DNA from: an uncultured delta proteobacterium
Lineage (GTDB): Bacteria > Desulfobacterota > Syntrophobacteria > Syntrophobacterales > Syntrophobacteraceae
DNA: 64,000 nucleotides
Assembly: GCA_963808625.1 (NCBI GenBank)
Contig: CAWEHK010000029.1
Coordinates: 128,001-192,000 of the forward strand
Direction: 5' to 3'
The translations under genes and the position numbers were made by a program. The notes below the pieces were generated by a model that saw nothing but the letters and a program-made list of their open reading frames with translations, had not been told where the DNA came from and ran no database searches. The first letter of the stretch is position 1. Each line of letters opens with the position of its first letter. Below, in pieces: positions 16,219 to 63,261 of the stretch.

Positions 16219-16978
16219 ATGAATAACAACCCAGATCCTCAGCATGCGTTGCACCCGGACCGGCTTCCCTTCGTCCCCCCGCTCGCTGCCGCCCTGTTCC
16301 GGCTGCATTTTCGTACCTGCAAGTTTACCATCGTTGGCAGGGAACATGAAGAGTTTGCTCTGCGCCATGGCGATCCGGTGTTGATAACTTGCTGGCATTT
16401 TGCTTTTCCGACGGTGGTCTATCGTTTCCGAGGCCACAGCGCTCTGGTCATGGTGAGCCGCAGCCGCGACGGGGAATGGGCGGCGCGTGTCGTTCAGAAG
16501 CTCGGATATCGGTGTTTCCGGGGTTCTCCCGGCAAGGGCGGGAGCACCGCCCTGAAGCAGTTGATTTCTCACATCAAAGGTACTCCCGGAGGCGGCTTCA
16601 TTGCCGACGGCTCCCAGGGGCCGCCGCGCATCGCCCAGACGAGGCATCCTCCTGCTCGCGCGCTATTCGGGGGCGCCTTTGATGCCGGTCAGCATGGCCG
16701 CCGATCCGTGTTGGCGCTTCCATAGTTGGGATCGCACCGTACTCGCGAAACCCTTTTCGCAAATCGTCATGGCTTTCGGGTCCCCCATGAGGATCGCGAG
16801 AGACATCTCCGCGGCTCAGCTCGAAGCCGCGCGTCTCGATCTCGAAACGCGCCTCAATCAGCTGACCGACGCGGCCGAGGAAACTATCAAAGGCCTGGCC
16901 AAGAATAGAATATCGTCTCTCACCACGGAACACACGGAACACACGGAATACACGGAGTACACGGAATACCGGAGCTGA
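16219..16978 (+). CDS. DUF374 lysophospholipid-acyltransferase-family protein; frameshift near 16640
   Basis: WH...MVSRSRDGE...RGS..KGG..ADGSQGP, then in the next frame SWDRTVLAKPFS. Confidence 0.8.
16921..16970. repeat. 9-bp tandem array (CACGGAAYA) forming the DUF374 C-terminus
   Basis: caccacggaacacacggaacacacggaatacacggagtacacggaatacc encodes TTEHTEHTEYTEYTEY. Confidence 0.85.
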
Positions 16979-18520: not shown

Positions 18521-19035
18521 GATTCGGGTACGACGTTCATGCCTTTGATGAAAATCGCCCCTTGATTTTGGGCGGTGTGGAGATTCCCCATACCCATGGG
18601 CTGCTTGGACATTCGGACGCGGATGTGCTCCTGCATGCGATCTCTGACGCGCTTCTGGGAGCGGCGGCACTGGGGGACATCGGGCGCCATTTCCCGGATT
18701 CCAACGCCGCGTACAAAGGCATCTCGAGCCTCATCCTGCTCCAGCGAACCGTCTTTCTGGTCAGGGAACGTGGCTTTGAAATCGAAAATATCGACTCGAC
18801 GCTGGTGCTGCAAAAGCCCCGCCTCGCCCCGCATATTCCGCGAATGGTGGAAAACATCGCCAACACCAGCAATATTTCCCCGTCATGCGTTAACGTTAAA
18901 GCGACAACCACGGAGCGACTGGGATTCACCGGGAGGGAAGAGGGGATTGCGGCTTATGCGGTGGTGCTCCTGAGGGACATGAGTGCTCACCGCAGAGACG
19001 CAGAGGTCGCAGAGAAAACAAGAAGTGGTGGTTGA
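18511..19035 (+). CDS. ispF: 2-C-methyl-D-erythritol 2,4-cyclodiphosphate synthase
   Basis: [20 protein letters not shown] and [18 protein letters not shown] motifs. Confidence 0.96.
18986..19021. repeat. 9-bp-unit repeat arm inside the ispF 3' end
   Basis: ctcaccgcagagacgcagaggtcgcagagaaaacaa, near-identical to 29381-29417. Confidence 0.8.
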
Positions 19036-44294: not shown

Positions 44295-46806
44295 TTAATT
44301 GTTTGAAGGCCCGCTCTGCCCTGGTTCGCCCGTCTGACCCCCTTTCGCCGGCTTCTGTGGCTTGACGTGAGGACCTTGATCCCCCGCTTGCCCAGGCGGT
44401 CTGACCTGGGGCGGCCGCAAGTCCGGTTGAGGGGCGGTCGGTCGCACCCGTGGGGTGTCATTAAGCGATGGCCTCGCCTGTCCTGCGGCGCCGGGTTGCA
44501 TGCCCCCCTCGGGTCGCGAAGGCTTCACGCGCTGCCCTTGATCGCCCGGTTGTGCCGGCAGTCCGACCTGGGGCGGCCGCACGTCCGGTTGGGGGGCGGT
44601 CGGTCGCACCCTCGGCGTGTCATTGAGCGATGGTCTTGCCTGTCCCGCGGCGCCGGGTTGTATGCCCCCCTCGGGTCGCGAAGGCTTCACGCGCTGCCCT
44701 TGATCGCCCGGTTGTGCCGGCAGTCCGACCTGGGGCGGCCGCCCGTCCGGTTGGGGGGCGGTCGGTCGCACCCGTGGCGTGTCATTGAGCGAAGGTCTTG
44801 CCTGTCCCGCGGCGCCGGGTTGCATGCCCCCCTCGGGTCGCGAAGGCTTCACGCGCTGCCCTTGATCCCCCGGTTGTGCCGGCAGTCCGACCTGGGGCGG
44901 CCGCACGTCCTGATATGGTGCGGGTGGCCTGACCCTCCGTGGATCACGGTCACCGGGTCTTACCTGACCAGGTTCAGCCGGCTGCACCTCACCACCGACC
45001 GCCGGCGGCCTCTCTCCCTGGCCATCCTGGCCCAATAGTGGAGAAGGTCCGGTTCCCGGCGCTCGGCATTTCCCGGCCAGGTTTCACGGGCCTTGGCTTC
45101 GTTCCTTCACCGGTTAGCGTTCGGTCTCGATCCGGTTCGCCAGGCCGAGCTTCCGGGCGGACCCTGTCGGGTTGGCCCTCAAATTCTTGACTTGGCCCGG
45201 TTGCAATCGCTGATGGAGGTTTGGACCTCCCCTTCAATTCCCGTTGCTGGAGCTGCAGTTCGGTCTGCGGCCTGCTTGCTTCGCTTCCTCTGACGAGTTT
45301 GTCGGTTACTTTTGGCGCTTCTATCTTTACATCCTGCACCGGTTTCGCATACCTAATGGCGGCCACATCCCGCTGGATGAGGTTGGCGTTGAGGCCTCCT
45401 GCTTCTCTTGCAAGCCGCTCATTGTGGGCAATTCTGCTCAGGACGACATCATGGGGCTTATGTTCCGCTCTCATGTCGGTGAAATCGTATCTCTCGCGGA
45501 TATGGTCGTAATTGTGAATAACTTTGTCGTTGATGACCGGAGCAGCACGGTAGTTCTTGATGATGGTATTCCTGTTGATATTGGCAATCCTCAGGTTCTG
45601 GTAGTTGTTCACATTGTAGAAGTTGTTTTGGTTAATCACTACCGCATGGTTAACATATTGATATTGATTGATATTGATGTTAATGACGTTAATGTTGTTG
45701 ACAACCATGGTCCTTGGTCCCCACCAATGGCGGCAGTAATAGGGTTCGGTGGGGCCCAGAGGAATCCAGCCAATATGGGGACCCGAGTAAATCCAACCCA
45801 CTCTTCCCGGATACCACCCGAACGGAATGGCAAGAAACGGACCGAAACTCACGCCGACATTCACCACCGGCGGGGCCCAGTACCAGCAATTGGCGCTGCT
45901 CACGAACACCCAGTTGCCATAATGGTGGGTTACATAACCGAAAGGTTCATAGGGAATCCAGCAGTTGTCCCCGTAATAAACCGTCCATCTCCCCACCGTG
46001 AAGGGCGCCCAGCCGACCGAGACATTGATCGGGCGCCAAAAGTAACGGTAATTCCCTTCGTAATAAACGCGTTCCCATCGGCCATGTTCATCGAGCGCAT
46101 AGGACTCATCGTGCAGGGCGGGAGGGAGGTAGCGCACCGAGTCTCCCTGGACTTGCGTCCGCTGTGACCAGATCCGGTCCCGTTCCACATTCCAGTCATC
46201 CCAGTCCGCGTCGACATTTCCTTGCCCGGAGGTCACCTGGCGGCCGTCAGAAACAACCGAAGAGGAGCCCGCGATCACGTCATACCGGTTTTGGTCAAGA
46301 TTGGGGATGAAATCGACCTTTCCTTTGAGGGAAATCACCTCCAGAGACTGATCACCCACATATAAATCGAATATGGTTCCTGCCGGCGCCACGACATACC
46401 CGAAAGGGCTGGTCGCCTTGATCACACCGCTGGTGCTCCGGTTGTACAGCCTTGCCATGCCGGAGGCGACGTCGACCTCGGTTACCTCCAACTGAAGCGT
46501 GATAAGCTGGATCTGGGTGTTGCCCCCGATCCTGGCCCGGGTGCCATTGGGCATGACCAATTCCGCTTTGGCCTTTGCCTCTGAATAAAGGGAGTCATCC
46601 AGGCCAAAGGGGGCATCCCTGACCGTGGCCACCCAGTCCTTCGCTTCCGGCACATACCGCAGCAATTGGCCTTCGATATGCGCAATACGCCCGACCAGGA
46701 CCCCTTCTCCGGATGCTCCGGGGTCGCGGGCCTGAGCCCAGCCGAACGAGGTCATCAAAAGCATTACAATGAACCCTGGAAGGAGGCACTTCCTGATCTT
46801 TCCCAT
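44295..46806 (-). CDS. Exported FecR-like/DUF6600-type protein with a Pro-rich repeat tail; frameshift near 45035
   Basis: Signal peptide; L..HG.W, W.P...GW.PF..GRW, PFGY...HYGNW and GWIPLGP.E motifs; Asn/Ile-rich linker. Confidence 0.75.
44375..44910. repeat. 162-bp (54-aa) coding tandem repeat, three full copies plus partial
   Basis: gtccgacctggggcggccgc recurs at 44561, 44723 and 44885. Confidence 0.95.
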
Positions 46807-51504: not shown

Positions 51505-51537
51505 TCCGCACGAGATAAGGCCTCTTTTTTCCAGTCC

Positions 51538-51603
51538 AACTATCACCCATCAACCATCAACCATCAACTCATCAACCATCAACCATCAACCATCAACCAT
51601 CAA
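51538..51603. repeat. Heptamer array, family F4 (AACCATC)
   Basis: About 8-9 imperfect copies of aaccatc. Confidence 0.9.
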
Positions 51604-54163: not shown

Positions 54164-54232
54164 AACCAAGAGCCAGGAGCCAAAAGCCAAGAGCCAAGAG
54201 CCAAGAGCCAGGAGCCAGGAGCTAAAAGCCAA
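54164..54232. repeat. Heptamer array, family F1, just after the nudC stop
   Basis: aagagcc/aggagcc/aaaagcc, about 9 units. Confidence 0.9.
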
Positions 54233-56891: not shown

Positions 56892-56927
56892 GTGCTGAGT
56901 GCTGGGTGCTGAGTGCTGAGTGCTGAG
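56892..56927. repeat. Heptamer array, family F2 (GTGCTGA)
   Basis: gtgctgagtgctgggtgctgagtgctgagtgctgag. Confidence 0.9.
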
Positions 56928-57670: not shown

Positions 57671-57744
57671 AGCTCTTGGCTCTTAGCTCTTAGCTCTTAG
57701 CTCTTGGCACTTGGCTGTTGGCTCTCGGCTCCTGGCTTCCAGCT
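57671..57744. repeat. Heptamer array, family F1 in reverse orientation (GCTCTTG/GCTCTTA)
   Basis: agctcttggctcttagctcttagctcttagctcttggcacttggctgttggctctcggctcctggct. Confidence 0.9.
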
Positions 57745-57763
57745 TGACCTCCCTCATTCCTTC

Positions 57764-57809
57764 CACTCAGCACCCAGCACTCAGCACTCTCATCGTCACT
57801 CAGCACTCA
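57764..57809. repeat. Heptamer array, family F2 (CTCAGCA), containing the DUF62 stop codon
   Basis: cactcagcacccagcactcagcactc...cactcagcactca. Confidence 0.85.
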
Positions 57810-58647: not shown

Positions 58648-58658
58648 AGTCGTAAAAC

Positions 58659-58711
58659 AGTGATCAGTGGTCAGTGACTAGTGGCTAGTGGCTAGTGGTC
58701 AGTGGTCAGTA
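58659..58711. repeat. Heptamer array, family F3 (AGTGGTC/AGTGGCT)
   Basis: agtgatcagtggtcagtgactagtggctagtggctagtggtcagtggtcagt. Confidence 0.9.
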
Positions 58712-58776
58712 GCCGGTAAGGCAGCCACGGTTCAGGTTGATGCCGATTTGAACAAAGGCCACAGGCAAATGCAAAA

Positions 58777-58856
58777 AGCTAACCGCCAACCGCCAACCGC
58801 CAAGAGCCAGGAGCCAGGAGCCAAGAGCCAAGAGCCAACCGCCAACAGCTAAGAGC
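58777..58856. repeat. Heptamer array, family F1, overlapping the EamA stop
   Basis: aaccgcc x3, aagagcc/aggagcc x5, aaccgcc aacagct aagagct. Confidence 0.9.
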
Positions 58857-60254: not shown

Positions 60255-60367
60255 CGGAGAGATTCATGAGGGTGATGTGGTTGATGGTTGATAGTTGATG
60301 GTTGATGGTTGAGTGGTTGATGTGAGGTAGGGTTGGCATGGGCTGCCGGAGAGATTCACGAGGGTGA
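60255..60367. repeat. Heptamer array F4 (GGTTGAT, 60279-60322) between two 21-bp direct repeats
   Basis: cggagagattcaYgagggtga at 60255-60275 and 60347-60367. Confidence 0.85.
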
Positions 60368-60445
60368 ATCCAGACCCTGGTAGGAACCGAATAACTGAGG
60401 AAATGATGGTATTGATTCTTATGAGGAGATTTGAAAGGAGGGCGA

Positions 60446-61246
60446 ATGGTTCAGTTCGAAAGTCCCGGTATTGAGGATTTGACCCGGTTTGCGAGCGATG
60501 TGCTGCGTCACGCTGGGGATGAGGCACTGCGCTACTACGGCAAAGGGGACCCCCTGGTGAAATTTGACTCCGATTTGGTCACAGAAGCCGAGCTTCATCT
60601 GATCGATTTCTTTCGGAACCAACTCCAGGCTCAGTTCCCCGAGCATGGCATCTTTGGGGATGAGCTGCCGAAGCAGGACTACGTCCATGGCGAAAAAAGA
60701 TATCTCTGGATTTACGATGCCCTGGACGGGGTTGCCAATTTTCAAGCCGGTATTCCCATCTGGGGGACTTCCCTCGCGCTCCTCGAAAACTTCTGGCCAA
60801 TTTTTGGGGCCTTTTACATGCCGGTTACGGGGGATTTGTTCCATGCTCAAGCCGGTCAAAAAGCCTGGTGGGGCGATGCTGAAATCACGATTCCCGACCA
60901 TGGTGAAATCAGCAACGAAAGCGTGCTCCTGACCTACTCGAGGTTTCACAATCATTACCGCTCCTCCTTCCCCGGCAAAATTCGCAACCTCGGCTGCACC
61001 GCCGCCCATCTCTGCTACGTCGCCAGAGGGTGCGCCGAAGGAGCTCTGCTGGCCAATGTTTCCTATCAAGACCTGGCGGCGGCACAAATCATCCTCACCG
61101 CAGCAGGCGGTAAGATCTGCAAGCTCGATGGCCAGGAATTTCACCTCAGTGATTATCTGGATGGAGAGCGGATCGAGGAGCACCTGCTTGCCGCCCCCGA
61201 AGGCTCGCATGCGGCCATTGCGATGTATCTGAGCGAGGCGGAGTGA
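60446..61246 (+). CDS. Inositol monophosphatase-family protein with divergent motifs
   Basis: VTEAE, FPEHGIFGDE, WIYDALDGVANF, RNLG.TA..LCYVARG and DLAAA. Confidence 0.85.
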   Translation: MVQFESPGIEDLTRFASDVLRHAGDEALRYYGKGDPLVKFDSDLVTEAELHLIDFFRNQLQAQFPEHGIFGDELPKQDYVHGEKRYLWIYDALDGVANFQAGIPIWGTSLALLENFWPIFGAFYMPVTGDLFHAQAGQKAWWGDAEITIPDHGEISNESVLLTYSRFHNHYRSSFPGKIRNLGCTAAHLCYVARGCAEGALLANVSYQDLAAAQIILTAAGGKICKLDGQEFHLSDYLDGERIEEHLLAAPEGSHAAIAMYLSEAE

Positions 61247-61360
61247 GTAGGGAGTAGGAGTAAGGAGTAGGAGTAGGGAGTAGGAAGTAGGGAGTAAGGA
61301 GGGGCAGGTAAGAGGAGTAGGGAGTAAGGAGTAGGAGTAAGGAGTAGAGGGATTAGGGAG
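61245..61360. repeat. Left arm: heptamer array F5 (GGAGTAG/GGAGTAA)
   Basis: gagtagggagtaggagtaaggagtaggagtagggagtaggaagtagggagtaagg... Confidence 0.95.
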
Positions 61361-61368
61361 GAGCGATT

Positions 61369-61749
61369 GTGGGGAGAGAAGGGTATGCCGGATACCGGGA
61401 TTTGAAGGTATTTAAGCTTGCGTACCAGCTTGCCCTTGAAATTCACGAACTAACGAAGTCCTTTCCTAAAGAAGAGAAGTATGCTCTGGTCGACCAAATT
61501 AGACGGTCATCCAGGAGCATTGCGACGAACATTGCTGAGGCCTGGAAGAAAAGGCGCTACGAAAAGGCATTCATCAGCAAGCTGGTTGATTGTTCGGGAG
61601 AAGCCGGTGAAACAGAAGTCTGGCTGGATTTCTGCCTTGACCTTACGTATATCAAAGCCGATCAGCATCAATATTTTCTGAGTAGATATCAGGAAGTAAG
61701 CCGCATGCTTTATGGTATGATAGAAAAAGCCGGAAGGTTTTCCACATGA
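61369..61749 (+). CDS. Four helix bundle protein (TIGR02436 / 23S rRNA IVS-protein family)
   Basis: [36 protein letters not shown]....GE..ET..WL; GGAGGAG RBS and GTG start. Confidence 0.95.
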
Positions 61750-61800
61750 TCACCTCCCTGACTTTTACTGGACCTTCGGCCTCTCGCTCGTTCTCCCCGC

Positions 61801-61930
61801 TTCCTACTGCCTGCTCCCTACTTCTGACTCCCCGCGTCCCGCTCCCTACTCGCTCTACTCCCTACTCCCTACTCCCTACTCCCTACTCGCCTACTGCTTA
61901 CTCCCTACTCCCTACTGCTTACTGCCTACT
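61801..61930. repeat. Right arm: heptamer array F5 reverse complement (CTACTCC)
   Basis: ctactccctactccctactccctactccctactcgcctactgcttactccctactccctactgcttactgcctact. Confidence 0.95.
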
Positions 61931-61950
61931 TTAAACGGAGATTGACGCCC

Positions 61951-63184
61951 ATGATAACGGTGCCCAAGAGTGAGGTTGCCAATCGGCTCGTTGCATTGCA
62001 GTCCCTGCTGCAGAGGGAGGAAGTCGAGGCGGCGATCATCCGCCAAAATGCGGACCTGTTCTACTTTACCGGCACGGTGCAGGACGCTTACCTGATTGTG
62101 CCGGCGTCGGGAGCGCCGGTCTTCCTGGTCCGGCGGGATGTGGACCGGGCCGGGGAGCAGTCTCCGATCCGCCCGATCCGTTGCGCTCAAGAGCGTCAAG
62201 GAAGTCTCCCAGGCGGTCTTTGATGCCTGTGGCAGCGCCCCCCCGAAACGGGTCGGTCTGGAACTGGACGTCCTCCCTGCCAACACTTTTTTCTTTTTTG
62301 ATGAAAAGCTTTTTCCGAAGCAGCAGATTGTTGATATCAGCGGCCTCATCCGCCAGGTGCGCATGGTGAAATCCCCCTGGGAGCTTGACATGATGCGCCG
62401 TGCCGGGGGGGTCTCCCGGGCGGTTGCCGAGGCGGTGCCGCAACTGCTGCGGGAAGGGATAAGCGAGTTGGAGTTGAGCATCGGGCTCGAGGCTGTCGCC
62501 CGAAGAGCCGGTCACCTGGGGCTGATCCGCCTGCGCGGCTTCAACATGGACATGTATTTCGGGCACATCCTCTCGGGCCCTGAGGCGGCCATTCCCGCTT
62601 ACGGCGATGCGCCGACAGGCGGTCTCGGAGTGAGCGCCGCTTTCGGCCAGGGGGCCAGTGAACGCCGCATCAGGGCGGGCGAGATGGTGAGCGTTGACAT
62701 CATGATGAACTGCCAGGGGTACCTGAGTGACCAGACGCGAAACTTCTCCATCGGCCCGCCTCCTTCCAGGCTGGAGGAGGCGTACCGGTTCGTCCAGGAA
62801 ATCCACCGGCGCTTCCGCGAGGCGGCAAGACCGGGGGCCGTCACCGGTGAGCTCTATGAGCTGGTCTGGCATTGGGTCACGGAAGCCGGATGGGATGAAT
62901 GGTTTATGGGCTACGGCGCCGGGCGGGTAGCATTTATCGGCCATGGGCTGGGGATCGAAGTGGACGAGTTTCCGTTCATTGCGCAGGGGCAGAAACTGGT
63001 TCTGCAGGAGGGGATGACGTTTGCCTTCGAGCCCAAGTTCATCATGCCCGGCCTGGGTATCACCGGCCTTGAAAACACCTATGCGGTCACTTCCGGTGGT
63101 CTGGAATCGTTGAACACCGCGACCGAAGAGCTTGTCATCATCCAGCATGCCGAAGATCAATTTCTTGCCGATTTTCATGCCTGA
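61951..63184 (+). CDS. Xaa-Pro aminopeptidase family (M24B); frameshift near 62180
   Basis: DLFYFTG, RMVKSPWE, D....GYLSDQTR, GHGLG.EVDE.P, EPK and G.EN motifs. Confidence 0.88.
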
Positions 63185-63212: not shown

Positions 63213-63261
63213 TTCTGACTTCTGACTTCTGACTTCTGACTCCTGACTGCTGTCTTCTGCC
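63213..63261. repeat. Heptamer array, family F6 (TTCTGAC)
   Basis: ttctgac x4, tcctgac, tgctgtc, ttctgcc. Confidence 0.9.

Follow-up and report, generated by a model that had tools for sequence, protein, structure and literature searches.

Inverted heptamer arrays around TIGR02436 four-helix-bundle genes: a probable family of mobile cassettes without their own transposase

In the REPtron (RAYT-REP-REPIN) system, a small HUH/Y1 transposase gene is flanked by inverted cognate palindromic REPs, and is accompanied by dispersed non-coding derivatives and by paralog-specific repeat classes. Among the heptameric tandem repeats of bacteria, the cyanobacterial STRRs form a further class. The systems closest to the locus described here are the ORF-bearing intervening sequences (IVSs) of 23S rRNA genes, known from Leptospira and Coxiella. 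According to the available part of PMC4990558, heptamer repeats are found at the 5' stem of one Coxiella IVS, where RNase III cleaves, and earlier proposals of IVS mobility are cited in the same source. Heptamer arrays have also been described in Xanthomonas (GGGAATC) and Nostoc (GGGGA(C/T)T), located at stops and starts, and in Beggiatoaceae (TAACTGA), with the same polarity that is reported below (PMC4692102 and PMC4679880, as far as available). The terms 'four helix' and 'intervening' are absent from the main texts of both papers, in the form available, and the accessible part of the work on heptameric repeats by Rehm et al. reports no association with mobile elements. Avd, the accessory protein of diversity-generating retroelements (DGRs), resembles S23 proteins, according to the part of bioRxiv 10.1101/2023.10.23.563531 that was available.

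The locus analyzed here carries a gene of the IVS-encoded family, enclosed by two inverted heptamer arrays and located between two protein-coding genes rather than within a 23S rRNA gene. No link between this family and heptamer arms outside rRNA was found in the literature covered, which was thin for subscription journals, supplements and curated database comments. Taken as a unit, the gene and its two arms probably constitute a mobile cassette with cognate arms.

The window cassette and its protein

The window is the whole stretch of 64,000 nucleotides that was analyzed, belonging to the genome labelled G000; the cassette and its two neighbouring genes are on its forward strand. The cassette lies between a gene of the inositol monophosphatase (IMPase) family (60431..61246; PF00459), whose orthologs within the genus show 85-91% identity, and an M24 peptidase gene (61951..63184). 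The IMPase stop codon, a TGA at 61244-61246, is located inside the start of the left arm (61245..61360), a G-rich, degenerate heptamer array (GGGAGTA/AGGAGTA), which carries stops in all three frames as well as Shine-Dalgarno-like words. A Shine-Dalgarno-like GGAGGAG (61357..61363) is found 5 nt before the GTG start codon and would serve the 126-aa gene (61369..61749). An internal 3' spacer (61750..61802), which can be aligned in part with the corresponding stretch of its nearest relative among the cassettes (L051), separates the gene from the right arm (61803..61930), a C-rich heptamer array which is the reverse complement of the left one, is stop-free in every frame and is degenerate from about 61793. 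The peptidase ATG, at 61951, follows 20 nt past the right arm and is preceded, outside the cassette, by its own putative Shine-Dalgarno element, GGAGA (61937..61941). In both arms Tandem Repeats Finder detected a period of 7, with 16.4 copies and 74% matches on the left, 17.9 copies and 77% matches on the right. The units are degenerate variants of R-G-S-A-G-T-A, and the arms form 33 inverted pairs in multiple registers. A first-pass annotation had described a 126-aa TIGR02436-type ORF between reverse-complementary heptamer arms, extending from the IMPase stop to about 20 nt before the peptidase ATG; HMM search, repeat detection and coordinates bear out this description.

Neither a transposase nor an integrase was found inside the cassette, and promoter-like and terminator-like matches were present at chance level only, in agreement with the reported absence of a transposase, an integrase and an evident promoter. 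The cassette gave no Rfam match, and none of the PADLOC defence models matched the gene (0 families). Elsewhere in the window, a 21-nt direct repeat (60255-60275 and 60347-60367) brackets a heptamer array upstream of the IMPase gene, and a 162-bp tandem repeat is found at 44374-44910 (3.3 copies, 93% matches).

The M24 peptidase gene is intact in the congeners G007 and G002, and in the window is frameshifted near 62180 by one extra base (62178-62185), relative to G007. Frameshifts are also found in the PglX gene of G000 and in one of its family paralogs, which suggests indel errors in the assembly; the extra base may itself be an error of this kind, and indels of that sort could also shift the arms out of register. 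An origin of the cassette pattern as an artefact of this assembly was rejected, since the pattern is seen again across many unrelated genomes as well as on closed plasmids.

The encoded protein is a member of both TIGR02436 (111.6 bits, cut-off 24) and PF05635 (116.4 bits, cut-off 33.8). It is marginal for Pfam bAvd (40.1 bits, against a cut-off of 40) and falls below the cut-off of the DGR Avd model NF033474 (42.3 bits, cut-off 80). The structure model is a confident, all-helical four-helix bundle (pLDDT 95.5), and its best structural matches are XCC0516 and BT_0352, followed by Avd; the TM score is 0.84 to 2GSC. Against Avd and the DGR RT-Avd-RNA complex (PDB 4DWL, 8UB7), TM scores range between 0.72 and 0.77 at 14-16% identity, in line with the structural kinship of the family with Avd stated at first pass. 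No known catalytic site was recognized in the predicted fold, which is most similar to structures of the family itself and to Avd. Across the family, Q43, E57 and E81 are invariant, while R45, R46, S50 and N54 are nearly so. The gene is under purifying selection, with a dN/dS of 0.06-0.20 in 13 pairs. The family structures 2GSC and 2RLD contain five chains each and, by analogy with them, the window protein is predicted to be a homopentamer.

Inverted arms, cognate units and dispersed arrays

A genome-wide survey of G000 identified 8 family matches, six of them strong, including one with a C-terminal frameshift. Inverted arms are present around all six strong paralogs, each with a different heptamer, as expected by the first-pass annotation if arms are a trait of TIGR02436 genes. 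A stop-containing family remnant retains a short downstream array only. The weakest match, on contig C43, is a true DGR Avd located beside a reverse transcriptase (RT), and has no heptamer arms. The region (L187:3238-5575) likely corresponds to a DGR: its Avd passes the cut-off, and an RT and a candidate target gene are close by, with a transposase-like ORF between them.

The same arrangement was searched for in a wider sample, composed of homologs from relatives and 80 GTDB loci, with at least 200 nt on each side and one locus counted twice. Under a strict test, tandem 7-mers were found on both sides of 74 of 148 homologs, as compared to 3 of 3000 random controls; all 74 positives showed an inverted match, and 13 of them a direct match as well. 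When periods of 6-10 were allowed, 107 of 147 homologs scored positive, against 42 of 1000 controls, and units of 8 nt became apparent in some clades. Depending on the test, about a quarter to a half of the homologs therefore fail. An independent metagenome set, assembled for the C50 paralog of G000, gave 36/64 positives under the strict and 43/64 under the lax test, after 16 of 80 loci had been dropped for short flanks. Among ten plasmid loci, taken out of 48 matching records and inspected by eye, seven carry inverted arms, one direct arms (L310) and two a right arm only (L308, L309). In two cyanobacterial plasmids (L304 and L310) the family gene lies between cas6 and cas4, with inverted arms in one case and direct arms in the other. 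Other local arrangements were observed: repeated tandem copies of the 3' half of the gene plus the right arm (L035 and G023 C18:333-341 kb), and one left arm with more than 40 perfect units (L060).

A parallel type of cassette exists for GxxExxY (TIGR04256) genes: the four intact genes of this kind in G000 (C24:66097, C8:266487, C37:23000 and C19:104064) are all surrounded by inverted 9-mer arms, starting just after a stop codon. Arrays of 9-mers are also found in the window, at 16924-16975 and 18991-19015.

Across phyla, the repeat unit goes with the protein subfamily and not with the host. The window clade was defined as the 49 loci whose proteins share 57% identity or more with the window protein; it spans 30 flank contexts and, judged by record titles, about ten phyla. 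A quick tree of the homologs (107 columns) was used descriptively only. The window unit class is exact in 31 of the 44 scorable loci, and within one mismatch in 38 of them; the corresponding figures for other homologs are 3/69 and 15/69. In the clade of the C50 paralog, 40 of 63 loci carry exactly the C50 unit class, and none the window class. When loci were compared pairwise, the unit match rose from 0.02 at 20-30% protein identity to 0.57 at 60-80%. Many of these loci are vertical orthologs, and the counts thus overstate their independence. Units are not unique to a clade, as the window class is also found beside distant proteins (L031, L305, L298).

Most heptamer arrays do not enclose a family gene. 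In G000, 402 arrays were identified, at a ratio to intact cassettes of about 60:1; the exact unit of one of the six paralogs is found in 178 of them, and a unit within one mismatch in 284, while random heptamers would be expected to match in 0.5% and 11% of the cases, respectively. At least a dozen of the 402, of other classes, are located in the window between 2707 and 63259; examples are those at 51537-51603, 54166-54232, 56892-56927, 57672-57809, 58658-58856, 60278-60322 and 63213-63259. Polarity was scored with a home-made gene caller: among the 346 arrays that could be scored, 168 start next to a stop codon on their own strand and 51 next to a start codon on the other strand, so that 219 show the polarity of cassette arms, whose G-rich member abuts a stop codon and whose C-rich member abuts a start codon; only 4 show the reverse, and 123 are more than 40 nt away from a called gene end. 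Within 3 kb, 36 inverted array pairs were found, 30 of them with the G-rich arm first. In 13 short pairs no family gene is present, and arm pairs also surround ordinary genes or REP-like filler.

At the level of genomes, the gene and its cognate arrays co-occur only weakly. Triplets of the window class are found in 20 of 301 genomes of the phylum and, with the query used, a close subfamily gene in only 2 of these 20; exact window-class triplets are missing from one of three gene-bearing genomes. The 18 array-bearing genomes with no close gene indicate that arrays either survive loss of the gene or stem from other clades. Among viral-contig loci with triplets of the TAACTGA or GGGAATC type, none of 114 has a family gene in the flank, a result of low power, since only about 3% of the G000 arrays flank an intact gene.

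Occupied, partial and empty sites

Among the 19 relative loci listed, adjacency of the IMPase and peptidase genes was found in G007 and G002. The first-pass annotation had proposed to look for empty sites at this junction; the alternative allele turned out to be a partial one, in which 50-60 nt of the left arm are kept, while gene and right arm are absent. One metagenome contig, with about 96% identity towards the peptidase, shows this one-arm form too; the gene is covered by other contigs. For the arm only this contig (X1, with a 117-nt side) was used, as arm-to-arm joints with short sides probably derive from other loci. Parsimony on the genus tree points to a gain of the cassette in the lineage of G000; since losses are frequent at other sites, however, gain and loss are not polarised here.

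Clean empty alleles are found elsewhere. The C39 site is filled in G000 and G004 and cleanly empty in G007 and G002, with a scrap of the right arm in G001. At the C37 site three genomes are filled, G006 is empty, G004 retains the right arm only, and in G002 the outer ends of both arms are fused. Between carB and purF, G000 carries the cassette and four congeners only the right arm, within the purF leader; translation of a right arm as part of the N-terminal leader of purF is observed in five congeners (L182:2030-2170, L205, L207, L211, L212).

The closest relative of the window gene (77% DNA identity) belongs to G002 and occupies a different site, which in G000 holds arms only, and six pairs of loci at 80-87% DNA identity have the cassette alone in common. 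Whole cassettes that are nearly identical within different flanks were not seen; the two members of a 99% identical pair (L159/L161) do not share the left arm. At one site, compared between two genomes with flanks 97-98% identical (L038 and L059), units differ and the genes are only 60% identical, which amounts to a cassette replacement. On contigs C50 and C13 of G000 (L181 and L185), two segments have their flanking genes in common and match at 91-94% identity: the gene lies between the arms in one of them, REP-like filler in the other. No target-site duplication accompanies the clean empty alleles, and among 70 cassettes a shared word of at least 6 letters was found outside the arms in 5, compared to 4.5 in shuffled pairings. 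In G038 (L050), about 45 bp from the start of a gene are present as two diverged direct copies, one on each side of a cassette.

Cassettes also occupy positions other than gene junctions. In the congener G002, a family cassette constitutes an IVS in two copies of the 23S rRNA gene (L165, L167), with a stem built in 7-nt steps. In G006, a cassette is found within the BREX-1 gene PglX (L141:2017-6534), where the host frame, of 1505 aa, stays open across both arms and the gene; in G000 and G037 this position holds no more than a loop of about 20 aa. A second PglX position is occupied, again with the host frame open, in four viral-contig loci (L295, L296, L297, L301), two of which are identical over the stretch shown. 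The alternative (+2) frame is open in these embedded copies, against 3 of the 159 genes otherwise scored; given this rarity, the read-through looks selected. As a trait of the family, an open alternative frame was rejected, being closed in the window gene. One insertion is antisense (L305). Close relatives of the window protein were not found in viral contigs, and a phage collection searched with a different family member gave no family match.

Taken together, armed homologs, clean empty alleles at other sites, unrelated flanks and the 23S IVS of a congener sustain the earlier proposal of an insertable unit that lacks a transposase.

Proposed mechanism, alternatives and known systems

The chances are close to even that the cassette is a selfish element at the DNA level, whose protein recognises the unit, and which is moved by host or other in-trans machinery. 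Recognition by the predicted pentamer would take place on folded-back arms and be specific to its own heptamer. Such binding of the cognate unit by the protein would account for the conservation, at 60-70% protein identity, of a repeat that is prone to slippage. The cassette, having no promoter, would be expressed from the host transcript, and its insertion would be tolerated wherever the stops of the left arm and the open frames of the right arm spare the neighbours: at gene ends, in helix 45 of 23S rRNA and, if the host frame stays open, in protein loops. Inverted arms would make the interior prone to deletion, leaving behind hundreds of solo and paired arrays, and cognate arms already in place may be invaded again through recombination, which is suggested by the window and carB-purF sites.

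Movement through RNA is the less likely course. This scheme comes nearest to what the first-pass annotation had envisaged. Pairing of the arms in the host transcript would allow RNase III to free the loop, as in 23S rRNA IVSs; the Avd-like pentamer would bind the freed RNA and, together with an RT acting in trans, lead to a cDNA that recombines into cognate arms. The fold, which matches both Avd and the DGR RT-Avd-RNA complex, is in favour of it, Avd being a required RNA-binding partner of the RT in the available part of bioRxiv 10.1101/2023.10.23.563531. So are the stem of the G002 IVS, with its 7-nt steps, and the cleavage of the Coxiella IVS stem by RNase III at the first heptamer repeat (PMC4990558, available part). 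When a 716-nt RNA was folded, the arms paired around the ORF, at -307.6 kcal/mol (z -7.98, 20 shuffles), as anticipated by the first-pass annotation, which had envisaged a sliding duplex looping out the ORF. About 102 of 147 genes are sense to the upstream frame, by a crude test whose 34 'divergent' calls may be antisense shadows. RNase III is encoded by all 40 relatives, and was not found in the window's own assembly, which is 85% complete. RT matches occur in 19 of the 28 relatives that have the gene and in 4 of the 13 that lack it, a weak association, confounded by kinship and genome size. No RT is located beside the window cassette, its neighbours being the IMPase and M24 peptidase genes, and the RT matches of the genome are on other contigs. 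Against transposition through RNA, the single-contig genome G050 carries 9 family matches and no RT match at E<=1e-8; according to the available part of PMC4990558, excised IVS RNA is quickly degraded and S23p was undetected in vivo. Arm duplexes are, moreover, equally stable in sense and antisense (34 vs 29 of 63), with no bias of G-U wobbles to the sense strand. These symmetric energies, the RT-less G050, the antisense copy and the read-through insertions inside PglX favour a route through DNA. Precise splicing of the cassette from mRNA, with re-ligation, is disfavoured, since it would make an open host frame in PglX unneeded. Cutting of the mRNA hairpin by RNase III may well occur as a side effect, by analogy with the IVS, and be tolerated at gene junctions.

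Two further explanations do not involve a self-propagating cassette, and both appear improbable. The proteins could be post-transcriptional regulators of the host that bind heptamers, with the arrays at junctions as selected sites and the genes' own arms as autoregulatory ones. Arrays at stops and starts with a fixed polarity, as in Xanthomonas and Nostoc (PMC4692102, available part) and as proposed for Beggiatoaceae (PMC4679880, available part), would fit a regulatory role; so would purifying selection on the protein and units that follow the paralogs. However, congeners show turnover of both arrays and genes, a given site can have its unit replaced, 18 of the 20 array-bearing genomes have no close gene, 13 of 41 relatives have no family match, and the insertions in rRNA and inside PglX are left unexplained. 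Slightly less probable still, arrays may have spread on their own by slippage and recombination, the gene having been captured between arms a single time and kept ever since, with an unrelated benefit to the host. The great excess of arrays over intact cassettes, the arm pairs around ordinary genes or REP-like filler and the persistence of arrays where the gene is absent all speak for such a passive passenger. It is difficult to reconcile with units that differ by protein clade, are conserved across phyla at near-saturated synonymous divergence, and are kept distinct by six paralogs within one genome.

Beyond the DNA-level cassette outlined above, a wider reading can be put forward tentatively. 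TIGR02436 would be an unrecognised class of mobile elements, devoid of transposase, integrase or RT of their own, in which an Avd-like pentamer reads a subfamily-specific 7-nt code in its own arms and drives insertion, stealthy in-frame entry into genes included, and from which both the enigmatic heptamer repeats and the ORF-bearing 23S rRNA IVSs would derive. The family would possibly be the ancestor or a sister of DGR Avd, with a bearing on the origin of the latter, and GxxExxY genes with their 9-mer arms would form a parallel class. Already under the likely reading as a selfish mobile cassette, three loose ends would be joined: what the large protein family misnamed 'S23 ribosomal protein' does, where ORF-bearing 23S rRNA IVSs come from, and why 7-nt repeats show such excess and polarity, many of these repeats, long puzzling in bacteria, being explained as decayed cassette ends. 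If a short tandem code is indeed read and DNA is moved by none of the known transposases, a new chemistry of mobility and a programmable nucleic-acid binder would be at hand. The pairing of protein subfamily and unit offers a direct swap test for recognition.

Several known systems resemble the cassette in part. DGR Avd shares the fold of the window protein, which remains below the Avd cut-off; membership of the cassette in a DGR was rejected, as no RT, template repeat (TR) or variable repeat (VR) lies beside it and the real Avd of the same genome is unarmed. MITEs and ISs have terminal inverted repeats, remnants similar to the non-autonomous ones seen here, and filled and empty alleles as at the C39 and C37 sites; the cassette, by contrast, lacks a transposase, shows target-site duplications no more often than chance, and ends in tandem arrays of variable length instead of fixed termini. 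Like a REPtron, the cassette combines one type of gene with inverted cognate repeats and with dispersed non-coding copies at gene ends, but its product is a four-helix bundle and not a HUH/Y1 transposase, and its repeats are tandem 7-mers (8-mers in some clades) instead of palindromic REPs; Y1 matches in G000 are located elsewhere in the genome. The heptameric tandem repeats of Xanthomonas, Nostoc and Beggiatoaceae are likewise G-rich after a stop, or antisense before a start, and frequently form inverted pairs, whereas here arrays are tied to a cognate gene. The 23S rRNA IVSs of Leptospira and Coxiella (PMC4990558, available part) share the protein family, the inverted-repeat stem around the ORF and the heptamers in the stem. 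The window copy differs from them by its position at an mRNA gene junction and by arms of about 120 nt, against a stem of 28 bp; most family copies are outside rRNA, while the heptamers of that paper, in the part available, are a strain-variable feature of one IVS. The feature extends the known ORF-bearing IVS to a genome-wide family of cassettes with a protein-repeat code.
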